Shown here: one piece after another, positions 7,189-46,000 of the stretch
How the letters are laid out: each line of letters opens with the position of its first letter
Position numbering within the stretch: position 1 is the stretch's first letter
Source: a virus
Reading direction: 5' to 3' (one strand)
DNA length: 61,742 bases
IMG/VR virus record: IMGVR_UViG_3300037465_000034
Notes under the pieces: model-generated
Database searches by the model: none
What the model was told of the DNA's origin: nothing
The model's input: the letters and a program-made list of their open reading frames with translations, nothing else
Translations under genes and position numbers: made by a program

Positions 7189-7442
7189 GCGATCCACGCA
7201 AGGATGGCTGCGGCTCATGTTTTTACGTCGGCGAGGCTGATGACGGCGAAGTAAGGCAGCATCCCAGCCGGCGCAAGAGCGTGAACGTGGAAACGGGCAA
7301 GCTAGTGTGCCTGCGCAACCCGCCGGTAGCGGTGGCGATCATGTTGCCAGGCGGGCAGCTCGACAGGGTTGCAGGCATCGTGCCGCCCGTAAGCAAGGAC
7401 TCCTGGTGCGGTGAGTGGCGGGCCGCGCTGGTGCCGCGATAA
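7185..7442 (+). CDS. Small Cys-containing protein
   Basis: GTGA overlap with the upstream gene. Contains DGCGSCFY...C...C. Confidence 0.5.
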   Translation: MSDPRKDGCGSCFYVGEADDGEVRQHPSRRKSVNVETGKLVCLRNPPVAVAIMLPGGQLDRVAGIVPPVSKDSWCGEWRAALVPR

Positions 7443-10756: not shown

Positions 10757-10964
10757 ATGTTCAGTTGCTCTTTCAGCAACCAGTTCTCGAACGACTGCTG
10801 CGAGCAGTGGAGCTTCAGCAGGTTCTCCTTCAGCGGCGCCCTTGGGGGCTTTCACGTCGATTGCGGCCCTGGCGTGGCGCAGGCCGACGAGTGGATCATC
10901 CGCTGGCGCCGCAGAAGGCACATCACATGAGGCGGCGTTCTGCCAGGGTTAACGGAGGGCATCG

Positions 10965-13232
10965 GTGAGCATCAGGACGACGATGGGCGAGATGGCCGCT
11001 GACGCAGACGCCGGGCCTTCGCTCGAGGACGAGGCCGCCGAGCAAGAGCGCGAGCAGGCGCTCGCGCTGCGCCGGCAGAAACTCGAGGCGCTCGCGCTGT
11101 CGCTCGCCAAATCGCGCAGCGACGCCATTGCGGCGCGCCTGTCCTCGGGCATCGAAACGGAATGGATGCAGGACGAGGAGTATTACGAAGGCATCGACGA
11201 CGCCAACCGCGGCGACATGGCCGCATGGCGCTCCAAGCCCCCAGGCCAGACCACGGAGAGCGCCGAGCAGCGGGCGCAGGCAGCGAGCGTGTTCATCAAC
11301 ATCACGCGCCCCTACGTTGACGCGGCGGCATCCAGGGTGGGCGACATGCTGCTGCCAACGGACGATCGCGCCTGGGAGATCAAGCCCACGCCCATTCCAG
11401 AGCTCGAAGGCATGGCAAAGGGCAACTTCCCGCCGCAGGTGCTGCGCCAGGCGCTCGCCGCGAACAACGGCAACGCCGATTTGGCGAAGGCCCAACTGCA
11501 CAAGGCCGTGGATCAGGCCGTGGCATCGATGACAGAGGCCAGGAAAAGGGCCGCGTCAGCGCAGTCGCAGATAGAGGACTGGCATGTCGAGTGCCAGTTC
11601 CACAACCACGCGCGGCGCGTGATCGACGACGCCGCAAAGGTCGGAAGCGGCGTGCTCAAGGGGCCGTTCCCGACCAGGAACCGCGGGCTCGCGTTCATGG
11701 ATGGCGCGCTGGTGCTCAAGGACGAGATCCAGCCAGCGAGCATCCGGGTAGATTACTGGAATTTCTATCCAGACCCGGCCTGCGGCGAGAACATCCACAA
11801 CGGGTCGCACTGCTGGGAGCGCGACGACATAAGCAAGAAATCCCTCATGGATCTCATCGATCATCCAGGCTACATGGCCGAGGAAATCATGGCCTGCCTG
11901 GAAGAGGGGCCGATGCGAGCCTCGTCGCAGGCGCCGGAGCGCCAGACGCCGAGCGGCCACAAGCCCGACACCAAGTCGATGTTCGAGATCTGGTATTTCC
12001 ACGGATTGCTCGAGCGCGAAGACCTGGACGCGATCGGATGCGAGTGTGAGCCCGGCGAGCATCCGATCGTGGCGGCCGAAGTCACGATGGTGAACAACCG
12101 CATCATCAAGGCCATTCCTTGCACCATTCCCAACGGCGGGCTGCCCTATGACGTAATGGTCTGGCAGCGCCGCGCCGGGAGCTGGGCTGGCATCGGGGTT
12201 GCGCGCCAGATCAGGACGCCGCAGGAGATCGTGGTCGGCGCCGGGCGCAACCTGCTGGACAACGCAGGCCGCGCCGGCGGCCCGCAGCTCGTCATCCAGC
12301 AGGGCATCGTGGTGCCGCACGACGGCATCTACGAAGTCACGCCCTGGAAAATCTGGCTCGCTGGCACCGACGCCGACCTCGAGCACATCGACAAGGCGTT
12401 CCGGTTCGTCACGATCCCGGCGCTGCAGCAGGAGTTGATGGCGATCATCCAGTTGGGGTTGAAGCTCGCCGAGGATGTCACCGGCCTGCCGCTGCTCCTG
12501 CAAGGACAGAAAGGCTCGTCGCCCGAGACGCTGGGCGGCCAGCAGATGGCGATGAACAACGCGAGCTCCGTGCTGCGCCGCGAGGCGAAGTTGTTCGACG
12601 ACCTCATCACCGAGCCGCACATCCGCCGCTACTACGCATTCCTCATGCTCTACGGAGAGGACGAGCACAAGGGCGACTTCCAGATCGACGCGCGCGGGTC
12701 TTCCGCGCTGGTGCAGCGCGACATCGAGAACCAGGCGATCGCCGAGATGGCGAAGGTGGTGGTGAACCCGATCTTCGGTATCGACCCCAAGAAGTGGGCC
12801 GAGGAGTGGCTGAAGTCCAAGCACCTGGACGCGAAGCGGTTCCAGTTCGACGACGAGAAGTGGCAGCAGGTCGTCTCCAACATGGCGAAGGGCGGAGACC
12901 CGCGCCTGGCGGTGGCGCAGTTGCAGGCCGAATTGAAGGTCAAGATCACGCAGATGGAGCAGGCGTTCGAGGCCGATCAGAATAACCGCGACCGCGAGCT
13001 CAAGATGATGGTCGCGCAGATCGACGCGCAGCTCGCGCAGGCGGGCCTCACCAGCGACCAGCAAAAGGTGCTCGCCGAGATCAAGGGCAGGCTCTCCGAC
13101 ACCGTGCTGCGGCTGCGTGCCCAGCGCGAGATGCAGATCGCCGACCAGCAACAGGAGCGCGCGATCCAGGTCATCGAACCCAGGGCAGAACCCAAGGGCA
13201 AGGCTCCCGACGGCAAGGCTTTCATCCAATGA
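10965..13232 (+). CDS. Portal protein
   Basis: 755 aa. GTG start after GGAGGG. Acidic N-terminus followed by EWMQDEEYYEGIDD. Size and position upstream of scaffold and capsid genes. Confidence 0.75.
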   Translation: MSIRTTMGEMAADADAGPSLEDEAAEQEREQALALRRQKLEALALSLAKSRSDAIAARLSSGIETEWMQDEEYYEGIDDANRGDMAAWRSKPPGQTTESAEQRAQAASVFINITRPYVDAAASRVGDMLLPTDDRAWEIKPTPIPELEGMAKGNFPPQVLRQALAANNGNADLAKAQLHKAVDQAVASMTEARKRAASAQSQIEDWHVECQFHNHARRVIDDAAKVGSGVLKGPFPTRNRGLAFMDGALVLKDEIQPASIRVDYWNFYPDPACGENIHNGSHCWERDDISKKSLMDLIDHPGYMAEEIMACLEEGPMRASSQAPERQTPSGHKPDTKSMFEIWYFHGLLEREDLDAIGCECEPGEHPIVAAEVTMVNNRIIKAIPCTIPNGGLPYDVMVWQRRAGSWAGIGVARQIRTPQEIVVGAGRNLLDNAGRAGGPQLVIQQGIVVPHDGIYEVTPWKIWLAGTDADLEHIDKAFRFVTIPALQQELMAIIQLGLKLAEDVTGLPLLLQGQKGSSPETLGGQQMAMNNASSVLRREAKLFDDLITEPHIRRYYAFLMLYGEDEHKGDFQIDARGSSALVQRDIENQAIAEMAKVVVNPIFGIDPKKWAEEWLKSKHLDAKRFQFDDEKWQQVVSNMAKGGDPRLAVAQLQAELKVKITQMEQAFEADQNNRDRELKMMVAQIDAQLAQAGLTSDQQKVLAEIKGRLSDTVLRLRAQREMQIADQQQERAIQVIEPRAEPKGKAPDGKAFIQ

Positions 13233-13471
13233 ACGAGGTGATTCTCGAGGCGCTGGTGGTGTTCAAGACCGTCGGCGGCAAGCGGCCGGTGCCGGTTCAG
13301 CAGAAGGATGTGCCGGATTGGGTCAAGGATCCCGTGATCATGTCCAGGCTTGCACAAGGCTTGTTCGTGTCCAATGACGCAGAGGACACCGATCCAGAAG
13401 ACGTCGCGTGGTGGAGCGCGCTCAAGATCGAGGAGTTGCGGCGCAGAGCAAAGGGGAAGATACTGCGCTGA
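13229..13471 (+). CDS. Hypothetical protein
   Basis: ATGA overlap with the portal stop. ORF track. Confidence 0.55.
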   Translation: MNEVILEALVVFKTVGGKRPVPVQQKDVPDWVKDPVIMSRLAQGLFVSNDAEDTDPEDVAWWSALKIEELRRRAKGKILR

Positions 13472-13746
13472 TGGAAGCACTCACCAGGATCGAGCGAGAG
13501 TCCCCGGTGGTGGTCAAGGTGGCCGACCATCTGCGCGCGCGGCTGGCAATGCTGCGGAGGAAAAACGACGCCGACGCCGACGCAGAGACCACCGCGGCAC
13601 TGAGGGGGCAGATCCGCGAGTGCAAGGACATGCTGTATTACCTCGAGGGCGGGATCGAGAAAGCCATCGAGGAAATGAGACGGCCGCAGCCAGTGGCTGC
13701 CGCCACCTGGCCCGCAAGGGCAAGTGAAACTGGAGCGAGACGATGA
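13471..13746 (+). CDS. Hypothetical protein
   Basis: TGATG junction. In-frame part of ORF 13408..13746 (MEALTRIERESP...). Confidence 0.55.
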   Translation: MEALTRIERESPVVVKVADHLRARLAMLRRKNDADADAETTAALRGQIRECKDMLYYLEGGIEKAIEEMRRPQPVAAATWPARASETGARR

Positions 13747-14678
13747 GCGAAGCGCAAGCGGCTGCCGCCGACAAGGCCGCGGCTGAGCAGGAGCAGTTGG
13801 AAGAGCAGGAACATGCCGCAGCGGAACGTGCCTTCAAGCATGTCGTCACGGGAGAGCCGCAGGAGGTCGTAAAAGACGACCTGCCGCCATCCGAGGAGAC
13901 GCCGGAGCAGAAGAAGGCGCGCGAGGCAGAGCAGAAGAAAGCCGCGCAGGAAGCCGCGAAGAAAGCCTACGACGAGTGGATGGCCGCTGTGCCTTCGGCC
14001 GTGCGCGAGAAGATCGAGCGCGTGGACAAGATGGCCGAGACGGTCAACCAGGTCGGCAGGTTCGAGCGGCACCTGAACAAGGTCGAGGAGCGCGTGTCGG
14101 CGGTCGAAAAGGCCGGCAAAGCGGCGGCCGCGGCTGCCAGGGCTGCAGGAGGCGAGGCGCCCAGCGCCGATCAGATCAAGGCTGCTGTGGCGAACCTCAA
14201 GAAGTGGAATCAGATGAAGGATGACTTCCCCGATTGGGCAGACGCGATGGAAGAGCGCCTGTCGGTCTTCGGTGCGCCGGCTGCAAATACAGAACCCGCG
14301 CAGAAGATCAACCAGGACGAGATCGTCGGCAAGATCAGATTCCAGTTGAACGCCGAACGGGTCGAAGAGGTTCACGAAGGGTGGCAGGACACCGTGAAGA
14401 CGCCTGAGTTCAAGGAGTGGCTGCAACGTCAGCCCGATGATGTGAGGGCGCTGGCGGAAAGCGAGCGGGTCAAGGACGCCGTGTCGCTGCTGGACAAGTT
14501 CAAGGAACACCGGAACAAGGCCGCGGACATTCCGCCGCCTGAGACGCCGGAGCAGAAAAAAGCGCGCCTCGCCGCTGCGATGCCGCCCACCACGGGCCGC
14601 ACGATGCAGCAGCGCGGCGAAACCGAAACCGAAGCCGAGGCGGCGGCGAAGAGATTCGCGCAAATCCGCTCCGGCTAA
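13743..14678 (+). CDS. Scaffolding-like protein
   Basis: Acidic Ala/Glu/Lys-rich helical protein immediately upstream of the major capsid gene. Confidence 0.6.
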   Translation: MSEAQAAAADKAAAEQEQLEEQEHAAAERAFKHVVTGEPQEVVKDDLPPSEETPEQKKAREAEQKKAAQEAAKKAYDEWMAAVPSAVREKIERVDKMAETVNQVGRFERHLNKVEERVSAVEKAGKAAAAAARAAGGEAPSADQIKAAVANLKKWNQMKDDFPDWADAMEERLSVFGAPAANTEPAQKINQDEIVGKIRFQLNAERVEEVHEGWQDTVKTPEFKEWLQRQPDDVRALAESERVKDAVSLLDKFKEHRNKAADIPPPETPEQKKARLAAAMPPTTGRTMQQRGETETEAEAAAKRFAQIRSG

Positions 14679-14696
14679 ACCAAAAGGAGAGCCATC

Positions 14697-15749
14697 ATGG
14701 CTCAGCAGGCATACAACACCCCGACCGCCGCACGAATCGGGGCAGTGAAAGGCGAGATCCTCGCCCACGCGGCGCCGGTGGAAGTGCTGGGGATCACCGG
14801 CGAGCAGAAAAAGCTCGGCAAGAATCAGAGCGACACCATCAAGTTCCGGCGCTGGCTGCCCTACGGCGGCACCACGGCGAGCGCGAACACGATCAACCGC
14901 TGGGTCGTGGACGCAAGCGCCCATGTCCTGACGGAAGGCGTGACGCCGGCCGCGGACACGCTCTCGGCGCAGGACATCACCGTCACCATCCAGCAATACG
15001 GGTGCCTCTATCAGATCACCGACAAGGCGTTCGACCTCTACGAGGACGACATCGCCGGCGAGATGAGAAAGCAGGTCGGCGAGCGCATGGGCCTGGTGCG
15101 CGAGCTGGTGCGCTACGGCGAAGTGAAGGCGGGAACCAACGTCTTCTACGCCGGCGGCACAAGCCGCGTGACGGTGAACGCGAAGATCAACCTGAACACC
15201 ATCCGGCGCGCGACGCGGAACCTCCGCGCCAACCACGCCGACATGGTGACCAGGGTGCTCTCGCCATCGCAGATGGTGGGCACCGCCCCCGTGGAAGCCG
15301 GGTTTCTCGTATTCGTGCACAGCGATGCCGAGCCAGACATCCGCGATCTGCCGGGCTTCAAGCACTGCTCGGAATACGGGCAGAGGAAGCCCGTGCATCC
15401 GAACGAAGTGGGGTCGGTCGAGACGTTCCGCTTCGTCATCAGCCCCGAGCTCGCGTCCTACCCGGATGCGGCGACCTCGGTGACGGCCTCGACCTTCGGC
15501 CTTTACTCGACCACCGGCACCAACCCGGACGTCTACCCGTTCATCGTGTGCGGCGAGATGGCCTGGGCGCAGGTGTCGATGCGCTCGGTGGACGGCCTGG
15601 ACCTCACCTGGATCCCGCCCGGCCAGAAGGACAAGAACGACCCGCTCGGGCAACGCGGCTACGTCGGCGCGACGCACTACCACGCCGTCAAGATCACCAA
15701 CCAGGGCTGGATGGCGGTGATCGAAGCGGGAGTCTCGGCCCTGACGTAA
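14697..15749 (+). CDS. Major capsid protein
   Basis: 350 aa. Strong SD aaaggaga. Position after the scaffold gene. N-terminus ...GKNQSDTIKFRRWLPYGG resembles N4 gp56-type capsid proteins from memory. Confidence 0.8.
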   Translation: MAQQAYNTPTAARIGAVKGEILAHAAPVEVLGITGEQKKLGKNQSDTIKFRRWLPYGGTTASANTINRWVVDASAHVLTEGVTPAADTLSAQDITVTIQQYGCLYQITDKAFDLYEDDIAGEMRKQVGERMGLVRELVRYGEVKAGTNVFYAGGTSRVTVNAKINLNTIRRATRNLRANHADMVTRVLSPSQMVGTAPVEAGFLVFVHSDAEPDIRDLPGFKHCSEYGQRKPVHPNEVGSVETFRFVISPELASYPDAATSVTASTFGLYSTTGTNPDVYPFIVCGEMAWAQVSMRSVDGLDLTWIPPGQKDKNDPLGQRGYVGATHYHAVKITNQGWMAVIEAGVSALT

Positions 15750-31018: not shown

Positions 31019-34000
31019 ATGGGCGCGTTCGACGACTACCTGAACGGGAAGCCGCCGGCCGAGCCGGCGAAGCCTTCTGGCGCCTTCGATCAGATGGTCG
31101 CTGCCGATTCGCAGCGCGGCGACTTCTGGCGCGCGGTCAAGCAGACCTATCAGCAGGTTCCCGAGCTGGCCTACGGCATCACCGCGCTCGGCGCCTCGGC
31201 GATCGAGACTGCGATGGGCGAGGGCGGGCTTGCCACTTCGGCCAAGAATTGGTCGGTCGGCAAGATGCTGGAATGGAAGCACGCCATTCAGGAAACCTCT
31301 AAGGAGAGCGACGACATCAATTTCTCCTGGGAGCGCGCGCGCGAGGGCGATTACGGCGCCCTCGTCGATTGGCTGCAATACGGCGTCGGCTACGGTGTGG
31401 GGCAGGCCAGCCAGATCCTCGCCACCGCAGGGGTTGGGGCCATCGCCGGCAAGATCGGTCTGCGCGCCGCTGTGGACAGGTTCGCGGCTCCCTTGGTCGA
31501 GAAGGAGGCCGAGAGGCTGGTCATGGCCTCGATGGCCGAGAAGGGCGGCAAGGCCACCGCTGAGCAGATCGCCAAGGCGGCAGCCCTGCCGGAAGTCAGG
31601 AAAGCTGCGGTCGGCAGGCTTGCGAGTCAGGCTGGGGCGATCGGTGCCACCGGCGCCTACGCCTTCGGCATGGAGGGTGGTGAGATCGGCGGCGACGTCG
31701 CCGAAAGCAGTGTTTCACGTGGAACACAGCTCACCGGGTCCGAGCTCGCCAAGGCGTTCGGGGCCACCATGCTGGCAGGCACGGTCGAGTTCGCAGGCGA
31801 CCTGCTGGGCCTTGGGGCCATGATGGGCAAGATCCCGGTCGGCAGGAGGCTTGCCGAGGCCACCGGGTTGAAGGGTCGCGCCGCGCGCGGGATCGTTGGT
31901 GGCGCGATGGTTGCGCCGGCCGAGGGGGCGCAGGAGTTCTTTCAGACCGGCATCGAGGAGTGGGGCAAGGGCAAAGAGGAAAGCATGTTGCCCTGGGAAC
32001 AATCCCCAGAAAATCAGCGCCAGGCGTTGAATGCAGCCGCGCTAGGCTTCGTAGCCGGCGGGGTAATGGGTGGGGGTGGTGGCGTCCTGCGGGCCGCAGA
32101 AAAGGCCCGTGGCAGGCCGTTCGTGCCAGCACCAGCCAGGACTGCAGGCGAGACGATTGCGCCGATTCTGGATGCTCCTGACGTGCAGTCGGCCGTGGAT
32201 GCAGCCACGGCCGCCTACGAAAGCGATGTTGGCGCCTCGATCATCGCGCAGGTTCAGGACACCGAGTCGATTCAGGACGGCATCACGCTGGCGGTGGGCG
32301 CGGCGCGCGACGCCGCGGAGCGCGCCGCAACCTCCGGCTTCGCCTACCGCCAGCACCTTGAGCAGCAGGCAGACGCCGCCATAGCCGAGAGCCTCGGCCT
32401 CGAGGCGCGCCAGGCAGCCGAGGAAGCCGCAAGGCCCAAGACGGCCATGCAGCTCGCGCTGGAACGCGCCTTCCAGGTCGCCGCGGAACGTCCGGCCAAG
32501 GCTGCTGCTGCGCCCACCGCTGGCAGGCCAAGCACCAGCGAGGCGAAAGCCTTCGGGCGGCAGATCAAGGAATTGAGCGACGAGGAGCTGGCCGACGTCG
32601 CCGAGCGGCACACCATGTCCGCGCAGCGCGAGGCGGCGCGCGCCGAGTTGACGCACCGCACCGCGGTGCTGATGGCGCGCATCCCCGAGGAAAAGCCCCC
32701 GGAGAAGCAAGCGGCGCCGCCTGTGAGGATCTACGGGCAGTTGCCCGAGGACATGAGCCTCACGCAGTTGCAGAGTGCCGCGCAGCTCCTGCCCAACGGC
32801 AAGCCAAAGAACGTGGCGTTCGCCTATCAAGCTGCTGCGGCACAACGCGAGCTGGCGTTCCGCGAGAAGGTCGGCCAGATCTTCGAGGGCAAGACGGTGG
32901 AGCAGATGTCGGTGGCCGCGCTCGATCGCCTGATCGCCAACCCGACCGCCAAGCGCCAGTTGAAGCTGTTCGCGCAGGCCGAGAAGCGCCGCCGCGCCAA
33001 GGCCGACGCCGACATTCGCCGCCGCATCGCCAACCCCGGCATCGCCGATGAGCTGAAGGCATTCGCCGCTGAAGCCGGATGGGCTCAGAAGGGCGGGTTC
33101 TTGGTGAGGTCCAAGCGCAGCGAGCGCGCGGGCGACGAAACCGTGACCCGCACGCAATGGATCCCGCGGGCAGAGTGGTGGAGAGGCCGCCCTGTCGCCG
33201 AGAACGAGGACTTCTACCGGAAGGCCGTTGCCGACGCCATAGCAGGCAAGCCGTTGGGCGAGAAGCAGAAGCGGGTGGTGAATTTCCTTCTCGGCATGGC
33301 CGAGGAGGTCGGCAGGATGCTGGCCGAAGCCGATGTCGATGGAGTCGTGGACCAGGGGCTGGGGTTCAGCGTGGAAGATGACATGACCCATGAGTCCGTA
33401 GACTTGGCGATCGAGCGCGCCGATCGGCATTTCACCGAGGTCAAAGGACAGATCACGAAGGAGGAAGCCGATGCAATCGAAGACAGGCTCTTTGGGGCCG
33501 ACACGCGACCTGCCGTTCGGCGTGAGGAAGCTCGCGCGGCAGCTATTCCGGCGGAAGCTCGAACAGAACGGGTTGTTGAAGGACAGCGACGCGAACCTGC
33601 CGCCGCAGCCCCGGCAGAGCGAGGCCCGCCTGCCGCAGAAGCCGGCGCAGAACGAGGCAAGATCGTTGTCGCCGGAAAGCCAGCGGCCGGAGGAGTGAGC
33701 GGCGAGCCTGCATCGGATGAGCGCATCGCCGCCGCCAAGCGCAACCTGCGGAAGGCCTTGGACGGCAAACAGGCGTGGGAAGTTCCGCTCAAGAAGTGGG
33801 CGGCAGCGCACGACGCCTATCTCGAGGAGGCGTTCGGCGCCGGTCCAGAGGTTCCAAGGGAAAACGACGAAGAGATCGCCACGCAGCACCTTGAGCACAT
33901 CGAAAGCGCGATCGAGAACGCGCACAAGCCGCCGCGCGCCGCGCTGGCGAGCCACAAGGACATCGACGCCAAGGAGTTCCCGAGGGCGGCCGCGCTCTGG

Positions 34001-37000
34001 AATGAGTATTTCGGCCAACCAAAAGAGAAGGGGGCTGCAGATGCCAGCGCAATACGAAAGGATCAGGGACAGCTATTTGCGGGCGGGCAAGCCGAAGAAA
34101 GAGGCGAAGCGGCTCGCGGCGATGACCTACAACGCGCACCGGCCGAAGGGGGCGAAGCCCGTGGGGCCGCACAGCGACAAGAAGGGGCTCGTCCAGAAGG
34201 CGATGAAGTAGGGTCGAAGGCATGGTATGCCGCCTTACGTCGTGCTGCTCACCAAAATGAGTCGAGGCCCAAAGGCAAGCCCAGCTTGAGCAACAACCTG
34301 GTGCTGGCCTTGATGAGCTTCGCCGACGCAGATAGCAGATGGGCCGAACGCTTCTCATCTGGAAGGACTGACGATGAGTTGAGGCTTGACATCGGCCACG
34401 AGTTCGGCATGCAGGGCGGCGGTTATTCCCAGGCGCACAAGGGCGGCGAAAATCCCAAGTTTTATTTCAGCGCCGAGGGACACATACCAGTAGCGCACGG
34501 CAAGCCTACGCTGCAAGGCAAGGCTCTGATCGACGCGGTGCGGGCATTGTTCAAGATCCCGAAGCGCAAGGCGCAGGCAGCGCAGGTCGAGCGCCGCGTC
34601 GAGCCTACGCCAGAACAACAGGCGATGCTCGATTACGAGCGTGAGTTCGAGGAGGACATTGCCGGTCGCCGCGAGATCGCGCCTGATGATGCCGGGCTCG
34701 ATGAGCAGGCCATGCAGCGCGAGGAGGCAGAGGCAGAGGCGCAGCCGACCAAGCCCACTCCGAAAGCCGAGTCGCGGATCGAGCGCATGCGCGCGGTGGA
34801 TTCCGCCTTGATGGAAGGCGACATCAATTCCGTGGTCGAGTGGATGCGCGACGGCTTCGACGCCACGATCGTCATGGACGCGATTCGCGGCCTTGCCGAG
34901 ACGACGGCCTGGCCGGAGCGGCTGGCCTATGTAGCGAACAGGGCGGCAGAAGTGCTGCGGAGCGCCGATGAGAATGGCGTCGCCGATCTCGCCGAGCGCA
35001 TCCTCAAGCGCGGCTGGACCTACACGACGCACCAGGTCAAGAAGGGCGCGAAGCCTGATGACGTTGACGCCTGGGAGGCGCACCTAGCGCGCCGCAAGGC
35101 ACTGGCAGCGCGCCGCGCCGACATCGACGGGCTGCTCGAGCGCCGCGCCATGAAGCTCGTCGAGGACCGGCTCTACGAGAAGCGCATCAAGCCCGGCGAC
35201 ATGGTTACCTTCAACGCCACAGTCTACGACCGCTACGGCGAAGCGCGCGAGCGCACGACCGCGGAGCTTCGCAAGGGCGTCGGCGGCTATGCGATGAGCG
35301 GCATCGACACCGGCGGCGGCATCCTCAACATCGGCACCGAGGATGTTAGATACCTGACGAAGGCGAGCGAGACGGATCTCGCCGCGCTGCGCGAGCGCGA
35401 GCGGCAGGCATTTATGGAGCAGGACACAGGCGCGGCTCTCGAACGCCTGCGCGCGCCGGAGGGCGTCGGGATCCTGAAAGGCACCGAGTCGGCTGGCACT
35501 CCTGCCGCCCAGCAGCGGTGGATGACGTCGGAAGCTCTCGGCTCCGTCGATGGCATCGTTCTCGGCTACGCCGATGTTCAAGGCACGGATCGCGTCATCT
35601 TCCAGACCGACGATGGCAACCGCTACCTACTGGCACCGCACAGCCTGTTCCCGGTGGAAACAGGTGGCGAGCAGGTCATCCCGCAGCCCTACGCTTCCGG
35701 CATGAGCCGACGACGCGACATGAGGGCCGCGATCGAAAGCGCGGTCGGCGTCGGGGTGGCGGCTGCCTCGGAGAAGCCTGCTCTCGGCGCGAATGTTGAT
35801 GAAACCGTCCTGGCTCGCTACCTGCTCGCCGAGGCGCGCGTCGGCAACCGGATGATGGGGCCGCTCATCATCGACCGGATCTATGGGCCGGAGCATGGCG
35901 AGATGCGCCAGCGCATCATGCAGCGGCTCACCGGCGAGAATGTGTCCAAGGAGAAGTCTGGCGTCGGCGTGGTCAAGGCAGCCCTGTTCAAGCACTTCGG
36001 CATCCAGGGGGATTCGGAGCGCGCGCGCGAGGAGGCGCTGCAGGAAACTCTGGAACGCCTGGCTTACGGCGGGAAGACCGAGCGCGAGGCGCTGGATGCG
36101 GGCTGGGCGAATCTGAGCGCGGAAGAGCGCGCCCAGGTCGAGCGCGAGGTCGGCAGGCACCGCTTCGATGAGAACGCAGTCACCTGGATGCAGGGCGCCC
36201 GCGAGGGCGTCCAGAAGTGGCTGGCATCGGTCAGCGAGTCGGTCAGGGCGGCCTTCCGCAAGTTCGTCGCCTTTCTCGCCGCCGTTGCAGTGGCGCTCAA
36301 CGTCAGCACCGTGCAGGAGGCCGACGCTGTAGCGAGGCCCGCCGCGCAGCAGCAGGAAGTGACGGTGCGCGAGCTGGTCGAAAGACCGAAGGCCGACTTC
36401 GGCTACGCGCGGCCCGGCTGGGCCGCTCGCCTCACGGCCAACTGGATCATGGCAAGCGGCGCTCACGAAGGTCGCAGCTTCCTCGTCGCCGACAAGAACG
36501 CCGGCACGCTCTACGCTTTCGGCTCAGACGGCAAGCTGATCGAGCAGACTGCGGCGCTCTACGGCGAATCGAAGGCAGACGAGTTGACACCAGAGCAGTG
36601 GAAGGTGTCGGTGGACAAGATGCGGACCGCCGACAAGGTGACGCCTGCAGGGCGCTGGACGGTCGGCCTGCAGCCAGATTCCGAGCGCGGCTGGACGATG
36701 GACTTCGAGGGCGGCGAGGGGCTGGCGATCCACGCGGTCTACCTCGGCAACCCGAAAGAGACGCGCGCGCAGCGGCTTGTCACCGAGACGGCCGAGGACA
36801 ACTTCATCACCTACGGCTGCATCAACGTGCCGAAGGACTACTTCGAGCGCGTGCTCAAGCCCAACTTCGGCGACAAGCACGGGCTTTTCATCATTCCGCA
36901 CCAGGAGGCCAATACCGAGCGGGTGCTGGGGATCGTGGCCGCCGACATGGCGCCGCAGCTCGTCGAGCGCAAGGTGACGCTGCCTGCCGGCGCGCCGAAG

Positions 37001-40000
37001 CGCGAGAGGCCATCCGGCCGCCGCCGCAGCAAGGGCAAGTTCCGGTCGCGCGATCTGGACGCGCTCGGCGCGAAGGAGCGCGCCGCTGCCGAGCGCCAGA
37101 TCGAGCGCCGCGGCGCCGACGCTGCGCGCCTGGCGCAGCAACTCGAGCTGCATCAGGGAACGCCGTGGGCGAAGCAGACCATTCAGGGCTTGATCGTCAG
37201 GGCCGCGATCGACGAATACGTCGCTGGGCGCACGCCCGACTTCGCCTCGATGCTGGACAGTCCGCATACGACGAACGCCAAAGCCGCCGCCAAGGCCGGC
37301 GTGGATGGCATCTGGCGCTATCTCATGCAGCGCGGCCTGATCGGCGAGGCTGGCAAGCCAGCGAACAGCGTCAATTCCAGCTTCGCCAACTGCACGCCGT
37401 CGGCCGACTGCGCGAGATTCTGCTACGCGGCGACCGGCAACTACACGGCGCCGAATCCGATCGTGAAGTCGGAGCTAACGAGCTGGGCCGTGGAGAACAA
37501 CCCGCAGCGCGCCGGCGACCAGATCGCGCACGAATACAAGACCACCGCCGAGTTCTACGTCAAGAAGGCACTGCGCCTGTTTGACAAGGGCGACGGCACG
37601 ATGAATTGGATCCCTGTGATACAGCGCCTGAACGCGCATGGTATCCGGGTTCAGGTGTTCAGCAAGAACCCCGACTTTTTGCGCGCCGTGCCGAAGATGA
37701 ACCTGCGGCTGCTCTCTGCCGACAAGTCCAACCTGGGGATGGTGCGGGCCAACCCTGATCTGCCGGTCGCCTTCGTCTACTCGGATGCAAGCCAGATTGC
37801 CTTCCTCAACGAGATCCGCGACCGCGTGCAGGTCATCCTGCCAATTAAGCTCGGGTCGAGACTGCTCTCGAAGGCCGAACTCGAAGAGCTGCCGGCCTGG
37901 ACGCGGCCCTACCAATGCCCGGTCAACAACGGCCACCGCAAGATTGGCCGCCAGCCGAATCAGTGGACCTGCGGGCGCTGCGACTACCGCGGCGGGGTTG
38001 GGTGCTTCTACGGCACGCCCAGCGCGAAGGCGTTGGAGGCGATTGATCGCCCAGCGGAGTATGATAGCGAAACCAGGTCGCTAGTTGAGGAGTTGACCCA
38101 TGCGAGCCGACAGCTCAGACCGACAGAACGTCGAAAACTACTTGGAGAGATCGATCGCCTCATATCTGCAATACGGGCTGGCGTTGACATCGGAACAGCG
38201 GGCGGCAGTGCGCGCGAAAATGCTGCGGCGGTTCAAGGAGATGATCGAGGGCTGGGACGAGGTGTCTATCCGATCACTTTCCATCCCTCCCGAGTTCGTG
38301 AAACTCGCCCCGAAGCGGATCTTGCGCGGTTTGAGGGAGAGGGCGGACGACTAGGGGCCGAGCGTGAGGTATCCGAAGATCAAGGAGAAGCGCCTCCTGG
38401 CGCGCGCGAACCGGCCGCCGAAGGTGGGGACGTTTACTCCGTCGCCGCGCTACAGGGTGCGCCGGGCGAAGCAGCGCAGGCCAGTGACGACCAACTCAAG
38501 CTGACCGTCGCCGAAGGCGGCACAGCAGCTCGCTTCAGCCTCGAGGATGGCGCCGCAGAGAGCGTCGGCGCAAGGCTGCTGGGAAGCGTCGTCACAAAAA
38601 CCGGGGAGCCGTGGCTGCGACCGGGCGATGAGAAGCGCGTCTATCACGGCACCAGTAGGTCATTCAATAACTTCGAGGCTCAATACGGTCTGCCGTGGTT
38701 CTATTTCTCGGAAAAGCACGAGATGGCAGAGAAGTTCGCTGCCTCAGACGAGCCCATTCCGCCGACACCAGACAAGCCGGAGCGCCCAGCAGATCGCAAG
38801 GTGACGATCGCAACGAAGGACGGCCCCGCCAATGTTGATGCATGGGACGTTGGCGTGCCCGGTCTTGTCGTCACCTATCAAGTGAAGTCTGGCTTATACA
38901 GCGTCACGCACGAGGCATCAGGATACGCCGCTGGTGGCGCATCCGAGTATTTCGTCGCCGTCATGGAAGCAGCCAGGCGGCTTGGCAGAGCTGGCAAGAA
39001 GCTCGGTGTCGATTGGAGGCGTGGCGCAGAGTTCTTAGACGCGCTGCCGCGAGACGAAAAGCGCAAGCTGGCCGTCGCTGCTCGCATTGTCGAGCCCGAG
39101 CAGCCAGACCCAATCGCCGCGATGTTCGGCTACAAGGGCCGCGCTGGCATCGGCGTCGGCAGCAACATTCGCCCGGCTTACCTTGCGATCAAGAAACCGA
39201 TCGATCTGCGCGGATTGCGCGGCGGCACGCATCAGACGCCGAGGCAATTGCTGGAAGCTCTAGCCAGTCACGGCATCAACCTGACGATTCGGGACATGCC
39301 GTTCTCGCATCGCAAGGTCTATCAGATGCTCAACAGTCCTAGCGTGGCCGAAAAGATCATGGCGGTGGCCCAGGAGCGCGGATACGACGGCCTGATTTTC
39401 AACGACGAGTTCGATGCCAGGCTGAAGGCCGTCAGTTACATCGTGTTCAGTCCGTCCCAGGTGATCCCGGCGTTCGTGCCGCGTTTCAGCCGCAACGAGC
39501 GCGGGTCAGAACTAGAGCGCCGCGGCGCGCGCGTCGCGGCGATGGTGAAGGCGCTGGAGAAGCGCGTCGATCGCGCCTATCGGCGTGGCGATCCTCGCGC
39601 AGAGGATTGGGACGCCATTCTCTCGGAGCTCAAAGCCATTGAGGAAGGCATCGCCGAGGCGCTGCAGGAGGGCTCGGTCGAGGATGTTGGCGAGCCATCT
39701 GCCGATGATGTTGGAGAACCCGCAGGCATCGAAGAGAACCTTGTCAGGTTGTATTGGGAATACCTGCAGGGCGGCCTGGTGCGCGGCGGGGAGCAGGAAA
39801 CCATAGCCGCCATGCGTGATGCGCTGTTCGCGCCCGAGGGCATCGTCGGATCAACGAAGATGCAGCCGCGCACAGACGCGACGGATGAAGAAGTTCTGGC
39901 TGCGGCGAAGGATGCGTTCGAGGCATGGGCGGCGCGACAGGCGCGCAATGCCGGCGCCTACTACACCACCGACGCCAAGGGCCAGCCGCTCTTGCACCTG

Positions 40001-43000
40001 GACACGGTGCAGCTCGTCGATCCACAGCCATTCCCTGGCGCGGTGCGCGGCGGGCAGGCCTACCAGCACTCGATCTACCGCGACGGCAGGCCGGTGGGCG
40101 TTGTGTCGCTGGTGTGGGAGCAGGGGCGCGTCAAGTCGCTCTTGCACATCCTCACCTACGACGAGGAGCAGGGCCGCGGGGTGGCGGAAGCGGTGGTGCG
40201 TGGCATCCTCATGCACAACCGCGGCGGGCTGCACATCATGTCGATTCAGGACACGGCGCGCGGCTTTTGGGAGAAAATGGGGACTGAGTATCTGGAGACC
40301 GAGGGGACAGAACCCGATGGCTACATCACACCGGAGAGTTACCGTGCAGCGCGGGGTGCTGAGGGAGATCAGGAGGCGCGACGCAGAGCGCGCGAAGCGG
40401 GAACGCGCCCAGCCGCCGTCGGAGAAGGCGCGCCTCGACCTGGCGACGCTCGATTCTCTCCGGCAGACGAAGCACTAGATGTAGACCGCGCGCTCAACGA
40501 CATCCGCCGTGCCGGCACCACAAGATATGACGAGCAGGCACAAAGCGACCTCGCCGTCCTTGAGCGCGAGCTGGGGCCGTTCAGTTCGACGGGTCGGGTT
40601 CCTCGCGGTCTTTACAGACCTGTTCGCCTGCCTGACGATTCATACCTTCAGGAGCTCGCCGGGACCTTCGGAAGGCGAGTCCTCGGGATCAGCTTCGACG
40701 AATCCAGAGCACCACCGAATTCCCCGCTTCTGACGGATTGGCAGGGCGTCAGCGTCGGCGCCGATTCCGGCATCATCGGCATCCGCTACGGCGCGAGGCG
40801 CCCGTCGATCGCGCTCACCATGCACGAACTGTCGCATGAGATTGAGCGCGAGGATCCCGAGACGTTCAACGAGCTGGTCGAGGCGCTGCGGCCATATATC
40901 CGCCAGGAGGAATACGGCCGGCGCTTTGCTGCCGTATATCGCGGGATGCCGGATGCCCGCATTCGCGGCGAATTTGTCGCGGAGGTGATGAGCGACGGCG
41001 CGATGTATCCCAAGTTTTGGGATTACGTCGGCCAATACAGCCCGGAGCTTCTGAGAAAGCTGGTCGGCGCCGTGCGCCGGCTGCTCGATCGCGTGGCGCG
41101 CGGGCTGGGCATGGGCTACAAGTGGAAGACCGCGCAATACGTCACCGACTTCGACGCCGTGATGAACGAGGCGGCGCGCGCCCTCGCCAAGTATCACGAC
41201 AAGCGCGCTCTCGCCGATATGCAGCGCGCCGAAGAGCGGCGGCATCCTGCCTTCCAGCGCGACGACCTGCCTGCGATGGACCTGGACGCGGACCGCCCGT
41301 TCCAGACCGTGGACAGAATCGAGGACATCGAGTGGAAGGAGATGATGGATTACTTCTCGGCGAACGTGAACGAGCGCCGGGTGCTGATCTACAAGCCGAT
41401 GCTGCCCGAGGATCTGACGTTATCGAAGGCGCACCGTGGTGGCGGAAGAACATGGTGGCACGCCGTCGTGGCGGGCAGCAGCAAGCACCTGAGAAACGGC
41501 GGCAAGGCTGACAGCTTCGAGGATGCCGCGCGCATCGCCTGGGAAGCATTGACACTGCTACCGCCGGTTACTGACACGGTAGAGACCCGCTCTGCGATGT
41601 ATAGCAAGCGCATGGTGGCGAAAATGGGTGGGCGCCGTGGCAAGCAATACGGCTATTACCACCGCAACACCGGCCGCGAGTCCGAATACATCGAGGGCGA
41701 AGAGCTGGTCGATGGCGTGGAGCCTAGCGAAGGCGACATCGAGCGCGGGCCAGACTTCTCGCGCGAAGGCACGGCAGCGCCAGTCTTCTACTACGCGCTG
41801 GACCGCCAGCTCGTCGCCTCTCCCATGAAGGCCGGCCCGGCGAAAGCCTGGCGCGACTACATCAAGGGATTGGTAGCGAAGGGTCTTGTCAAGCAGGACG
41901 AGGTTAATTGGAGCGGCATCGACGACCTGCTGCAAATCGACACCGAAGGGCATCGCATCCAGCGCGAAGAGCTGCTGTTCTACCTGCGCCAGATGAACAA
42001 GGAGATCGGGGATGTCGTCGCCGGCGAAGCCATTGACGCAGAATTCGAGGGTGGTGGTGCGCCAAGCGCCGCCCACAGGGCCAGCAATAAGGTGAATGAG
42101 CTGCGAGTTCAGCTCGATGCGCTGGGCTATGACGTAGAGTTCGAGGCGAACGGCCCGGACGCCGGGATGCCGCTTTATGTGCTCCGGCGCTCGGATAGGT
42201 CGGCGTTCTCGTTCGGTGACAGGTTCGCGCTCGGAGACGCGCTGCACGTTGATGAGCTGCCAGACGGCCCGCGTGAACTCGCCGAAGATATTTATCAGGA
42301 GGCGCAAAAAGCCTTGGAGGACGAGGACGGAATCGTCGCCCAACACCAGCAATCGTTGCAACCAAGGTATGTGAAGACGCGCTACGAGACCTACGGCCTG
42401 CCGGGATCTGAGCCGGGCACCTACCGCGAGATCCTGATGACGCTGCCATCGTTCACGATGGAAGGCGTCGCTGGCCGCGTCGTGTTCGAGGGGCGCTGGC
42501 GGGAAGCTGTCGTCGATGAGTTCATGAGCGAGATCGCCGAAGAGCATCCAGAGGTGTATTTGGCGGCCATCGAGGAAGATGGCGTTCGGAACATCGTCGA
42601 GTTCAGTGGGGCAGGAGAAACAGCGCGCGACAGCATCGACAATTTCGCCAGGATGAATAGTGGCGATGTCACCTACACGAAGGGCGCTGGCCCGGTGCCG
42701 ATGTTCACTTCAGCCCACTGGCAGCAAGGCAACGTCGTGGCGCACATCCGCGCCGATGTCGTGAAGGCCGAGGATGGCAAGAGCTATCTGCGCGTGATCG
42801 AGATTCAGTCCGATTGGGCTCAGCGCGCGCGCAAAGTCAGAAAGCAAGAGGTCGTCCGCGTCGCCACTGAAAAAGGCATCAGCCGCGAGGAAGCCGACAA
42901 GCTGGTGGCGAGGGACTTCGGATTCTCCGAGCCCCGAGCGATCAGGGACGCTTCTGACAAGGTGATCGTCACCGAGCGCCACTACCGCGATCTCGTCAAG

Positions 43001-46000
43001 AAAATGCTCGCTCAGATCACCGAGCACGACTACTTCGGCTTCGAGGATGAACATGGGGCTTTGGAGGACATCACCTACAATCCGATCACCTGGGAGCAGA
43101 GTTGGCAGACTCAGCGTAAAGTCGTCCCCGCTGAGTTCCGTCGCCTCGCCAAGGAATATCTTGAAGCCTACGATGCGTGGCGGCGGGCGACGCGCGAACA
43201 GGTTGCGATCTCGCCGTATCCTAAGGCGCCGTTCGTGGACAAGACAGAGGCGTGGGTGTCGCTCGCGGTCAAGCGCGCGCTGCGCTACGCCGCCGACAAG
43301 GGGCTCGCAGGCGTGGTCTTCGCCAGCGGCAAGCAGAATCTTTCCCTCTACGAAGGCATCCGACGGCGGGTCAAGCGCATCGAGTGGCAGCCGGAGAAGA
43401 GGCAGCTCAACATCGTGTTCAAGCCAACCCGCGACGGGCATGGTCTGCAAAACGCGGAGCCCGACCGCCTGGTAGAAGCTGTCGGCCCCAAGGAGTTGCC
43501 GGAATACGTTGGCGAGAACATCGCCAAGCAACTGCTCGAGCCAACACCATCCGCAGGCACGGATGCCTTCAACGTGACCAAGAAGGATGGTTCGGTGTGG
43601 CGCGTTGTCGAGGGCGAGAAGCTTCGTGTCGGCGGCGAAGGGCTAGTAGCTTTCTACGACAAGCTGCTGCCAGCCGTCGCATCCGGCGTCGTGAGGAAAC
43701 TCGGCGGCAAGCTCTCCAAGGTGACGACGCAAAAGAAAGAAGGATCGCCGCTCGCCAAAAAAGAGATGACCGATACGGTGGTCGCCTATATGGCAGGGGA
43801 CATCAGCGCAGAGGAATTCATCGACAACACCGGCTTGAACATGACGGTGAGCGACGTCGAGGCGGACGAGGACATGAATGGAGCATGGGACAGGCACGAC
43901 GCGCGAACGAGGACAGTCGCCAAAACGATAGCCAATCGCCTCACGCGGCAACACGGCCCCGCGCGCTCAACGACTTACAACGCGGTCGAGCTCACGCCGG
44001 AGATGCGCGACAAGGCGCTGGGCGGCCTGCCGGCGTTCAGCCCATACTACACGCCAGATCTAAAGATGCGCCTGGCCAAGGGTAGAGAATCGCCAGATGA
44101 GTGGGTGAAAGGGTTGCAGAAAAAATACCCGGTGACCTGGCGCGAAGTCGGCGAGCGCGAGCTGAATTCACTTGAGCGCGAGATCGGGCTGCGCCCGATC
44201 CCGTCCGAGCATGAACCAGGCCACGGCCCTGCGCTCGAGGACAGGTATGCGTCGTTCAGGTGGGTGACGGATGCGCGCTACGCGCTACGAAACGCCGGGG
44301 AACCGGAGCCTCCGGCCGGCATCGAGCGGCCGTTGTTCAGCCGCGAGGAGCGCGAGCCGCGCGAGGCCGCGCCAGTGGCGGCTGGGATTCGCAAGAAGTT
44401 CGAGACGGCCGGAAATTTTGACAAGACGACCATCAGGCAATACGACGACTACGTTGCCGGTGCGCCAGAGCTGGCGTCGGCGCAAGCCGGGCCGATCACC
44501 GTTCGCGTGATGCGTGACACCAATGGCATCTGGTTCGGGCCAGGCTATTTCATACTCACGCACCGCGACTTTCCGCAATACCCGGTGCCGGCGCACAGGT
44601 GGATGGACGAGTGGGAACCCTATATGCAGTCCGTCGAGGGCGTCTCCCGGGCCGACTACGCGAAACTGCCGCAGGAGGAGCGCGCGGCGATCGAGGCCAG
44701 ACGCCAGGCGAGGACCTACGCAGAGAAGCAATTCTTCGGCGATCTGGCCGAGTTCTACTGGAACGACAGGTGGCAAAAGCGCCTCGACGAGAAGTTCAAG
44801 AAGCGCACACAAGGAGTCGCCGGCCACGATTGGGTCAAGGCCCGCAGCGCCGCCGAGAACGACTACTGGAAGGCGCTGGTCTACGACGAGCTGGGCCAGC
44901 GCGCGTTCACGCCGCACGACTACCCGCCGGCCGACAAGCCGAATCATCCAGTGCGGAAGATCGTCCACGGCATCAAGGACAACATGGAGTCCGCGATTCG
45001 CGAGGCTCGCGCCATGATCGCGGAGAAAGGCTGGAAGTCCGTCGCCGAGGCCTTCTCCTGGTTTAGCGATGATCGCTCTCACGGCGGCGAGGACGTAGCC
45101 GAGGCCGCGCGCGCTGTGGTCAAGCAGTTCGGCGGCACCGAAAGCACGGCGGACCCCTTCGATTTCGTGACGCGAGTCCTGACTGACGCTGAGGCCGAGC
45201 CTGTTCTGAGCGCCTACACCGAGGCCGAGCTGCGCGCCAAGGAGCGCCGCGAGAAGGAAGGCAAGCCGGTGCCGACGCCGACCACGGGACCGGAGCCGCC
45301 ACTGCTGACGACGCCAGAAGGCGTGGCGCCCGCGCGCTTTGGAGAGGTGCCGAAGAGCCCGACCGGTCAGGGCAGCCTGTTCAGCCGCGAGACGAGGCGC
45401 GCCCGGCGCCGTGGATCCGATGTGCGATTCAGCCCGATGGAGGCGATCGGTGCGAGCGGTGTGCGCGGCGACCACGAGGACGGCCTGGCGCGTCGCGGCA
45501 GCAATTTCGTGCGCGACCTGCTGCACAGCTCGGGCAAGTTGTCCTGGTGGTCCAGAACCGTCGGCACTCCGCAGCACGTTGCCGAGACGAACGCCGAGTT
45601 CCGGCCCGTGTTCGACGAGGGGCAAGCCTTCATTCACGACGTCAGCCGCTTCGCCAACGAGGCCGCTGACGCCGCGAACGGGGATCCGAACGACCCGAAC
45701 GCCATGCACATCCTCCCTCGCATCGAGCAGTTCATGGACTTCCTCAAGAAGCACGCCAGCAACGAGGACCAGGAGCGGGTCATGGGCGCGCTGATGACGG
45801 GAACGCTGTGGGGCGGCGGCGACCCGCTGCAGGGCCGTATCTGGACCGACGAGGAGCTGCGCGCCGGCAGGGAGGTCGATGGCGACATCCGCCTGCCGGC
45901 CTTCACGCCGATGACGGAGGCGCAGATCAAGCTCTACCGCCAGGCGCTCAACTCGACGCGCGTGAGCTTGGACAACACCGCGAAGTCGATGATCGCGCGC

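Follow-up and report, generated by a model that had tools for sequence, protein, structure and literature searches.

Within the 61,742-nt viral sequence IMGVR_UViG_3300037465_000034 from IMG/VR (referred to here as the window, meaning this whole stretch), one giant open reading frame (ORF) occupies positions 31019 to 48322 of the plus strand. This ORF is stop-free over 17.3 kb, encodes 5767 aa, and is predicted to give a polyvalent-type multi-domain virion or effector protein. Entirely inside it, on the same strand and in the +1 frame, lies s1 (33471-33698; 75 aa; ATG at 33471 and TGA at 33696-33698), which is in all likelihood a genuine nested gene with an independent start. On our best reading of the sequence, the giant ORF reads through four or five nested genes, namely s1, s2, s3, s5, and possibly s4.

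The start codon of s1 is preceded at a distance of 6 nt by the Shine-Dalgarno (SD) sequence AAGGAGG (33458-33464, plus strand). An earlier note on this DNA, made from its letters and ORFs alone, had given the coordinates, this SD-ATG arrangement, the TGA codon, and the product of s1, all of which were found to be exact. The predicted protein has a pI of 10.5 and consists of a basic amphipathic helix (..GVRKLARQLFRRKLEQ..) followed by a P/Q/E/S-rich tail. The core of the helix, VRKLARQLF, is encoded at 33522-33548 (plus strand), and its VRKLARQL is identical in the related locus L001 (loci other than the window are designated by L numbers). The giant-frame motif LFGADTRPA (33488-33514, plus strand) overlaps s1 codons 6-15 and is kept in the giant frame of relatives, so this stretch appears to be constrained in both frames. 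Strong SD hexamers placed 4-10 nt from an ATG or GTG that opens an ORF of at least 40 codons are scarce, with ~17 on both strands of the 61.7-kb window; nearly all of them are located at ORFs with a high G+C content at the third codon position (GC3), for example the capsid gene, and s1 and s3 are among them.

The codon composition switches frame over the same interval. The earlier note had reported that the bias toward G/C-ending codons drops to about half within 33471-33698, and GC3 of the giant frame indeed falls there from 0.80 to 0.49. The G+C fractions at codon positions 1/2/3 within this interval are 0.88/0.64/0.49 in the giant frame and 0.64/0.49/0.87 in the +1 frame, the latter being the genome's normal coding pattern; the corresponding values for the whole giant ORF are 0.68/0.47/0.80. 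The three-frame codon-usage scan that the note had proposed was performed with models trained on the window's other genes, taking the giant ORF in 30-codon windows and expressing the log-likelihood ratio (LLR) in nats per 30 codons. Only four segments of the giant ORF favored another frame by a substantial margin, and all four favored +1 and coincided with five ORFs: 33500-33661 (LLR 20.1; s1), 34046-34249 (LLR 16.1; s2), 38090-38443 (LLR 16.6; s3 and s4), and 40346-40486 (LLR 11.1; s5). The frame switch is thus present at the five ORFs with LLR values of 11-20, and these ORFs (starting at 33471, 34041, 38100, 38364, and 40317) do share the +1 frame, as had been stated. As a control, the highest LLR inside the window's other genes was 9.9, and values above 10 were obtained only at the 5' ends of stop-to-stop ORFs that overlap a real upstream gene in another frame. 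Therefore, a frame switch in this genome marks a real gene in the other frame.

Selection on s1-type islands in related loci

The WIPRAEWW module located just upstream of s1 was used as a query, and members of its family were found in IMG/VR and in metagenomes: L001 (=L008=L010), L002 (=L012), L003 (=L015), L011, L014, L017, L013, and L016. All G+C-rich members that reach far enough show an island of lowered giant-frame GC3 250-350 nt after the module, and the AT-rich member L016 shows none. The islands of L002/L012, L018, L011, L003/L015, L014, and L017 hold a +1 ORF with an ATG preceded by an SD-like purine run. Such runs are positioned 6-10 nt before the equivalent ATG in L001, L003, L014, L017, L002, L018, and L011, and the giant-frame amino acids encoded at them differ between relatives (KEE, EE, KG, RR). 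Conservation covers the Met of the nested ORF together with the first residues (MSERVQ, MSTRTQ, MPMT(K/R)TQ), and the ORFs of the relatives, 1804-3393 aa in length, are uninterrupted across the islands.

The closest comparison to s1 is provided by a +1 ORF at 10686-10826 of L001 (MNSTAFSEKARALPLKVRKLARQLLKAK...), which aligns with s1 and keeps the ATG, the SD-like run, and the identical VRKLARQL. Within the 27 nt of the s1 core, the window and L001 differ at four nucleotides, of which three are at the +1 third position, one at the first, and none at the second. Upstream of the core, where LFG..TRPA is conserved, the differences are mostly at giant-frame third positions (3, 3, and 6 at positions 1, 2, and 3). 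The flanking modules of the two loci are only ~40% identical as protein, and the DNA encoding VRKLARQL has nevertheless been kept; its conservation is therefore non-neutral. The giant-frame motif reads SLFGKSTRPA in the tblastn alignment to L001 and is represented by DLFGERPTG in L002, DLFGEAPSG in L018, and DLFGAKPPG in L011. As a separate observation, (D/S/R)LFG..RP motifs with a second DLF/DIF copy downstream recur in the linkers of the window (33488-33514), L001 (~10700-10730), L002 (~10860-10890), L018, and L011, and these repeats look like short linear motifs within otherwise unconstrained linkers.

Two pairs of relatives were close enough for the frames to be separated by the ratio of nonsynonymous to synonymous substitution rates (dN/dS). 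Between L003 and L014, which share 83% DNA identity, dN/dS was 0.17 for the +1 ORF, 1.35 for the giant frame over the same span, and 0.19 for the flanking giant frame. Between L002 and L018 (80.5% DNA identity), the +1 ORF gave 0.21 and the giant frame over the same span 0.81. Counted by giant-frame position 1, 2, and 3, the L003/L014 differences were 14, 4, and 5 in the island against 11, 7, and 27 in the flanks (Fisher P = 0.0019), and those of L002/L018 were 27, 6, and 16 against 97, 61, and 385 (Fisher P = 1e-8), so that the giant-frame position most often substituted is 3 in the flanks but 1 in the islands. An OLGenie-style partition, which takes account of the frame overlap, gave 0.12-0.13 for dNN/dNS, a sign of strong purifying selection acting on the nested ORF of these positional analogs, and 0.29-0.66 for dNN/dSN, a sign of weak selection on the giant frame.

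Further observations were made in these and other loci. The JGI gene calls include nested ORFs predicted at L018 52-306 and L026 29-238, where the contigs start just upstream and the giant ORF is thereby truncated; freed from masking by a longer ORF, the nested ORF scores as coding. A second and unrelated +1 nested family (..RRGTLISGV..MQPAVDQIEQ..) was found at L005 14628-14846, L006 13680-13904, and L007 13296-13526, conserved in three other giant ORFs, which come from distant relatives; for L006/L007, the +1 frame gave a dN/dS of 0.44 and the giant frame one of 0.90. L002 harbors a further +1 island at 8568-8873 (LLR 15.1) with an ATG ORF (MALNPYHPGFDPAVSRAYDPNYQ...) that has no counterpart in the window. 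In L011, the open frames 6920-13303 and 12811-15525 overlap by ~490 nt (island 12811-13306, LLR 24), the second being in the +1 frame of the first, which may represent an unfused or frameshift-joined state of a giant gene.

The other nested ORFs, s2 to s5

Among the five ORFs, s2 (34041-34211, plus strand; 56 aa) is close to certain to be a genuine nested gene at the sequence level. Its ATG is located 6 nt after an SD-like AAGGGGG (34028-34034, plus strand), and its product belongs to a family (MPAQYERIRDSY..GK..AKKLAAMTYNAHRP) with 22 homologs detected at 53-98% identity and E values of 2.6e-28 to 3e-4. The N-terminal ~35 residues of this family (MPAQYERIRDSY...AAMTYN) are almost invariant, with 11 invariant columns. 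Members are found free-standing among unrelated neighbors in L021-L025, L027-L029, L031-L035, and L037, and nested in the +1 frame of open frames of at least 1289 codons in five IMG/VR phage contigs (L036 and L038-L041; G+C 0.51-0.68). The flanks of these nested copies are unrelated to those in the window and to each other, and among their host frames one has a helicase match and another a DarB-like match. Compared with one another, the nested copies are 59-88% identical in the +1 protein with saturated dS, and 26-59% identical in the giant-frame translation with dN exceeding dS.

The same arrangement is present in L026, a 981-nt contig from another sample that is 96.7% identical to the window and in which the giant frame is open. 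Around s2, a stretch of 279 nt has a single mismatch, whereas the following 700 nt have 31. It was also observed that only ~3 of these 31 mismatches, in the module after s2 (window 34253-34953), are synonymous in the giant frame, the others altering amino acids; this module looks fast-evolving or diversifying as far as its sequence is concerned, unlike the nearly invariant s2 region. The AF2 model of s2 is a helical hairpin (pLDDT 75) of a generic kind, and Foldseek of this model against the PDB gave no match at E ≤0.001. A tblastn search of phages with the s2 consensus returned only matches of E ~0.8, and Pfam assigned no family to the whole s2 family.

The third ORF, s3 (38100-38354, plus strand; LLR 16.6), is a nested +1-frame gene encoding 84 aa with predicted helical structure, and its ATG is located 7 nt after the SD sequence GAGGAG (38087-38092, plus strand). 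A comparison against 1.8 billion proteins identified a single homolog, P0002, of 74 aa (48% identity, E 5.6e-9). P0002 is free-standing on L019, where AAGGAG precedes the ATG by 7 nt at the aligned position and the giant-type frame has stops. The AF2 model of s3 is helical, with a pLDDT of 67 that is too low for a structure search. A match to group II intron domain V/VI (RF00029; 41.2 bits against a gathering score of 40) was also noted at 426-499 on the minus strand of L019, ~650 nt from the standalone s3 homolog, and the DNA between them shows no clear coding frame.

The least certain of the five is s4 (38364-38504, plus strand), a candidate nested +1 ORF encoding 46 aa that begins with GTG behind a weak SD and has G+C fractions of 0.53/0.60/0.87; its signal is compositional only and shares the frame-switch segment of s3. 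A relative of the ART module of the giant protein, L020, is without s3 and s4. The last ORF, s5 (40317-40478, plus strand; 53 aa; LLR 11.1), directly follows the module at aa 2982-3153 of the giant protein. This module is common to the window and L001, and L001 carries at 15204-15365 a +1 ORF of 53 aa like s5, with TAG at the aligned position. The two products (..SEKAR.D.ATLD..RQTKH* and ..SEKAK.E.ATLE..RATKQ*) differ by conservative replacements, and five changes are synonymous in the +1 frame.

None of the five products contains a Cys or a hydrophobic N-terminal segment. A tblastn search of phages with s1, s3, and s5 gave no match, and the only Pfam or PHROGs matches of the five products, those of s2 to phrog_32268 (E 0.0034) and of s3 to Metal_resist (E 0.053), were disregarded. 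An in-silico digest predicted the tryptic peptides TGSLGPTR and DLPFGVR for s1, LAAMTYNAHRPK for s2, and SIASYLQYGLALTSEQR for s3. In all five ORFs a single T-to-C change is possible that abolishes the nested start and is yet synonymous in the giant frame. For s1 this change is T33472C, which converts ATG to ACG and the giant-frame GAT to GAC with Asp kept, and its equivalents include T34042C, T38101C, and T40318C.

Probable use of both frames and the alternative explanations

The chance of the giant frame remaining open over the nested ORFs was estimated by fixing the +1 proteins and resampling their codons from genome usage. The probability of an open giant frame was 0.245 for s1, 0.203 for s2, 0.103 for s3, 0.411 for s4, and 0.380 for s5, giving a joint chance of ~8e-4 across all five. 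The free-standing s2 and s3 homologs contain 1-3 stops in the frame corresponding to the giant frame. Together with the uninterrupted ORFs of the relatives and the LFG..RP motifs, these results indicate that selection keeps the giant ORF continuous, with both frames apparently being read. A/E/G/R/P/D make up 64-80% of the giant-frame residues over the nested ORFs. The uniform +1 phase is explained by giant codon position 1 coinciding with the G/C-rich position 3 of the small gene; T-initial stops are therefore rare, and G/C-initial codons (Ala, Gly, Pro, Arg, Glu, Asp), which are disorder-promoting, dominate. Relative to the small gene, the giant frame is thus the most permissive shadow frame; in agreement with this, the giant gene itself has its longest open stretches in the corresponding shadow frame.

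We propose that ribosomes starting at the giant ATG (31019) would read the islands in frame 0 as low-complexity A/E/G/R/P/D linkers between folded modules, and that other ribosomes would bind the internal SD sites on the same mRNA and start at the +1 ATGs. These internal starts would yield basic proteins of 46-84 aa with a pI of 9.6-12, ending at their own stops. Amino-acid selection in the islands would act mainly on the +1 protein, with the giant frame mainly being kept open and only locally selected for motifs such as LFG..RP. Translation of both frames is what we infer from the sequence. The small genes are probably older, with the linker reading derived through read-through fusion of modules or through tolerated insertion into linkers, because s2 and s3 occur free-standing and because the nested frames carry the genome-typical codon signature.

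Of the three readings offered in the earlier note, the one of genuine embedded genes is favored by the frame-specific purifying selection in relatives, the conserved SD-ATG signals, and the s2 and s3 families. The direction of overprinting implied by its term "overprinted small genes" is most likely to be reversed, with the genome-typical codon signature carried by the small genes and the giant-frame linker being derived. Its suggestion that formerly separate genes were fused is probably right as history, as s2 and s3 stand alone elsewhere with the frame closed there; however, the ORFs are still selected and are not mere footprints.

Several points weigh against s1 and its companions being genuine genes. 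dN/dS values in overlapping frames are intrinsically confounded, and the whole-ORF comparison of s1 with L001 did not separate the frames (0.84 and 0.89), this pair being too diverged; the L011/L002 values are likewise saturated and uninformative. The ortholog alignment suggested in the earlier note thus recovered the +1 ORF in L001 and purifying selection in the analogs, with s1/L001 dN/dS remaining uninformative. Profile comparison by hhalign did not link the s1 type of the window and L001 to the L003 or L002 types, so that the islands of the latter are positional analogs of s1 with homology unproven, from which the selection statistics are borrowed. The equivalence of s1-type ORFs rests on position, frame, and architecture (a basic amphipathic helix, then a P/Q-rich tail), and selection evidence for s1 itself is confined to the conserved core common to L001, the remainder being indirect. 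In its C-terminal half, s1 is of low complexity and varies in length, and it has no homolog outside nested contexts. For s4, which has a GTG start and a weak SD, no homolog was found. Finally, an acidic/Ala-rich linker in one frame in part compels the small proteins of the other to be basic and rich in P/Q, and composition alone is no proof.

The alternative that survives best is that s1 is a relic only, a fading footprint of a swallowed gene which has kept its codon signature and is neither expressed nor selected. The standalone homologs of s2 and s3 make a fusion history plausible, and the uninformative whole-ORF dN/dS between the window and L001 is compatible with a relic. However, a relic would soon lose its ATG and gain stops, whereas the start, the SD-like run, and the helix core have survived between phages that are ~40% identical in their flanks and saturated at synonymous sites. 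The positional analogs and the nested s2 copies are, in addition, clearly under +1 purifying selection. We consider the relic improbable.

A second alternative, also raised in the earlier note, is that the +1 frame provides alternative C-termini accessed by frameshifting, a slip into +1 near the start of the island giving truncated giant proteins with +1 tails. The +1 frame is in fact open for 23 codons upstream of the s1 ATG (33402-33470) and for ~170 codons upstream of s5, and internal SD-like sequences can stimulate frameshifting, as in prfB and dnaX. This reading is nevertheless disfavored by a +1 stop that immediately adjoins the conserved ATG on its upstream side in L003, L014, L017, and L018 and precedes it by five codons in L001. 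The conservation of the nested Met and first residues also speaks for initiation, as does the SD spacing of 6-7 nt, which is typical of it, and the s2 and s3 homologs begin at the same Met as independent genes. Inspection of 33402-33475 by reading, with no formal scan, revealed no slippery heptamer, shift-prone stop, or rare codon. We give frameshifted C-termini little credence.

A composition artifact, in which the island is merely an Ala/Glu/Arg/Pro/Gly linker and no +1 protein is made, is very improbable. The earlier note had itself cautioned that a linker rich in G/C-first codons raises +1 GC3. This is valid, and such linkers seldom have T at giant-frame position 2, which makes +1 stops rare anyway; the linkers of relatives also have a similar composition. 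The effect fails, however, to explain the fall of giant-frame GC3 from 0.80 to 0.49, the strong SD-ATG, or the concentration of the relatives' substitutions at +1 third positions, and it is largely refuted for s2 and s3, which belong to families with free-standing genes.

It is hardly credible that the giant ORF is instead a set of separate module genes whose common frame is open by chance with no dual coding: long shadow ORFs are frequent at 65% G+C, no shadow frame is more permissive than this one, and the JGI callers did split L018 and L026 into a small ORF and a downstream gene (where the contig start truncates the giant ORF), but the modules share one frame that is stop-free over 17.3 kb with the joint probability given above, the relatives' ORFs run uninterrupted through their islands, standalone s2 and s3 homologs do have stops in that frame, LFG..RP motifs are conserved in the giant frame of the islands, and terminator-like sites within the giant gene are no commoner than in shuffled sequence. 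Two other candidates were discarded. Two compensating frameshifts or sequencing errors are out, as the independent sample of L026 shows the same arrangement and the ORFs have their own starts and stops; a conserved RNA element in place of coding is out, as the substitutions show three-base periodicity in the +1 frame.

With s1 taken as a nested gene, some indications of function are provided by the company that the small ORFs keep. The WIPRAEWW module is accompanied by an s1-type ORF in at least six loci, as the aa 2982-3153 module is by s5 in two, which hints at module-specific partners. The occurrence of s2 alone or between unrelated modules would suit a small protein of general use, or a joint that is conserved. 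Our best guess is that the nested proteins are partners of the giant protein or of its modules, for example in assembly, packaging, or inhibition. That they are small basic helical proteins co-expressed with the giant protein and probably acting on or with it can be put forward from the sequence only tentatively, the odds being somewhat against it. The odds are likewise against a general scheme in which polyvalent or DarB-like giants were built by reading through older small genes, which would remain in the linkers as a hidden nested layer. This layer would supply functional partners (packaging or assembly chaperones, module-specific inhibitors) and conserved DNA serving as joints for fusing modules and shuffling them between phages, and it would amount to a widespread class of phage genes that gene callers, by their very design, overlook.

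Known nested genes and the genome setting

The closest mechanistic precedents appear to be lambda Rz/Rz1 and the nested genes of microviruses, and the closest in the manner of detection appears to be the potyvirus PIPO. In lambda, Rz1 is located wholly inside Rz in the +1 frame with its own ribosome-binding site and start, and one mRNA serves both. The likeness is that of a small +1 gene inside a larger phage gene with its own start signals. Rz1 differs in being a lipoprotein with a signal sequence and lipobox Cys that acts in lysis with Rz, whereas s1 is without Cys or signal peptide. The present case also differs in having four or five nested genes within one 17-kb gene, a host frame that is a disordered linker and not a folded region, and a virion/effector context. 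An Rz1-type o-spanin was ruled out for s1 to s5, given the absence of Cys and of a hydrophobic N-terminus.

Potyvirus PIPO lacks its own start and is expressed as a P3N-PIPO fusion that results from polymerase slippage. Like the present ORFs, it is short, conserved, and concealed within a very long ORF (that of the polyprotein) in a different frame, and it is recognized only through frame-specific conservation and codon-position patterns. In contrast, SD-ATG starts are present here, with a stop directly upstream in several relatives. The microvirus phiX174 contains the nested genes B in A, E in D, and K (reviewed in PMC8227390), which are similarly out-of-frame, same-strand nested phage genes with independent starts. 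There, however, size pressure acts on a tiny genome, and the nested gene is taken as the newer, overprinted one. In the present case, genome-typical codons are found in the nested genes, of which at least two have free-standing homologs, so that the host reading is probably the newer, and in a genome of ~60 kb compression is no obvious driver.

The giant protein matches ART-PolyVal of Pfam with 41.8 bits against a cut-off of 31.2, and its C-terminal ~900 aa match phrog_11358 and phrog_21376 of PHROGs; on these sequence matches it is classed with the polyvalent proteins as defined by Iyer et al. 2017 (PMC5512222). The domain architectures of such proteins have been described and autoproteolytic processing proposed (PMC5512222). 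The host gene here is of this class, being a giant multi-domain phage gene with ART-PolyVal. A term search of the text of PMC5512222 found no mention of overlapping genes, frameshifts, or linkers, and the literature searched, a limited collection, yielded no account of genes nested within those of the polyvalent or DarB type.

One listed route to gene overlap, route (a), is that two contiguous genes, each in its own frame, lose the stop codon that separates them (PMC2268670). A plausible origin of the present arrangement is similar, with the stop of an upstream module lost and read-through proceeding via the permissive shadow frame of the small gene into the next module. The known cases differ in being short terminal overlaps of two genes, whereas here whole genes are spanned, several times, with modules joined into one giant protein.

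Polymorphic toxin systems have toxin-immunity cassettes in which the immunity genes are normally separate and non-overlapping (mentioned in PMC5512222). The likeness to these systems is that of an effector module immediately followed by a small gene, as with WIPRAEWW and the s1-type ORF or aa 2982-3153 and s5. The position of s2 between unrelated modules and as a free-standing gene differs from this pattern and argues against a strict cognate-partner role.

Nested out-of-frame phage genes are known, mostly as isolated curiosities, and here several are located at the module joints of one 17-kb gene. The present case differs from the known ones in the presence of several nested genes in one giant gene, the linker nature of the host frame, the likely reversed direction of overprinting, and the recurrence of one family in unrelated long phage ORFs. 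The arrangement recurs in different phage lineages, and standard gene finders probably miss this class. If the nested genes are real, annotation pipelines that forbid embedded genes would lose a class of conserved small phage proteins, and the linkers of polyvalent proteins would be dual-coding DNA and not free spacers, which bears on the growth and shuffling of modules. The T-to-C start changes that are silent in the giant frame would then offer clean genetic handles on the function of the small proteins.

The window is a tailed-phage-like genome of ~62 kb with 65% G+C and 133 ORFs of at least 150 aa, long shadow ORFs being common at this composition. It encodes a terminase (4894-6267), a portal/adaptor (10965-13232), a major head protein (14697-15749), and also tail-fiber-like genes, and the giant ORF is located downstream of the terminase, portal, capsid, and tail genes. 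Scans of the window yielded no tRNA genes, no Rfam matches, and no promoters or terminators above chance. No close relative of the entire giant gene was found in GenBank phage DNA, genome contigs, the word-indexed protein search, or IMG/VR. For the individual searches, 31019-39000 gave no match to GenBank phages at the DNA level, two scans of genome contigs gave no host or prophage relative, and a scan for relatives of the modules around s2 was negative. The upstream 350-aa gene used as an anchor in IMG/VR gained no relative, and the word-indexed protein search with giant aa 560-1300 returned nothing, being probably swamped by low-complexity candidates. An independent Logan assembly, L009, is 100% identical in sequence to the window and records the same single 5767-aa product. 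Finally, an in-frame ATG of the giant ORF at 33317 is preceded by GAGGAGG at 8-9 nt and is a possible internal start that would give an N-terminally truncated giant protein.

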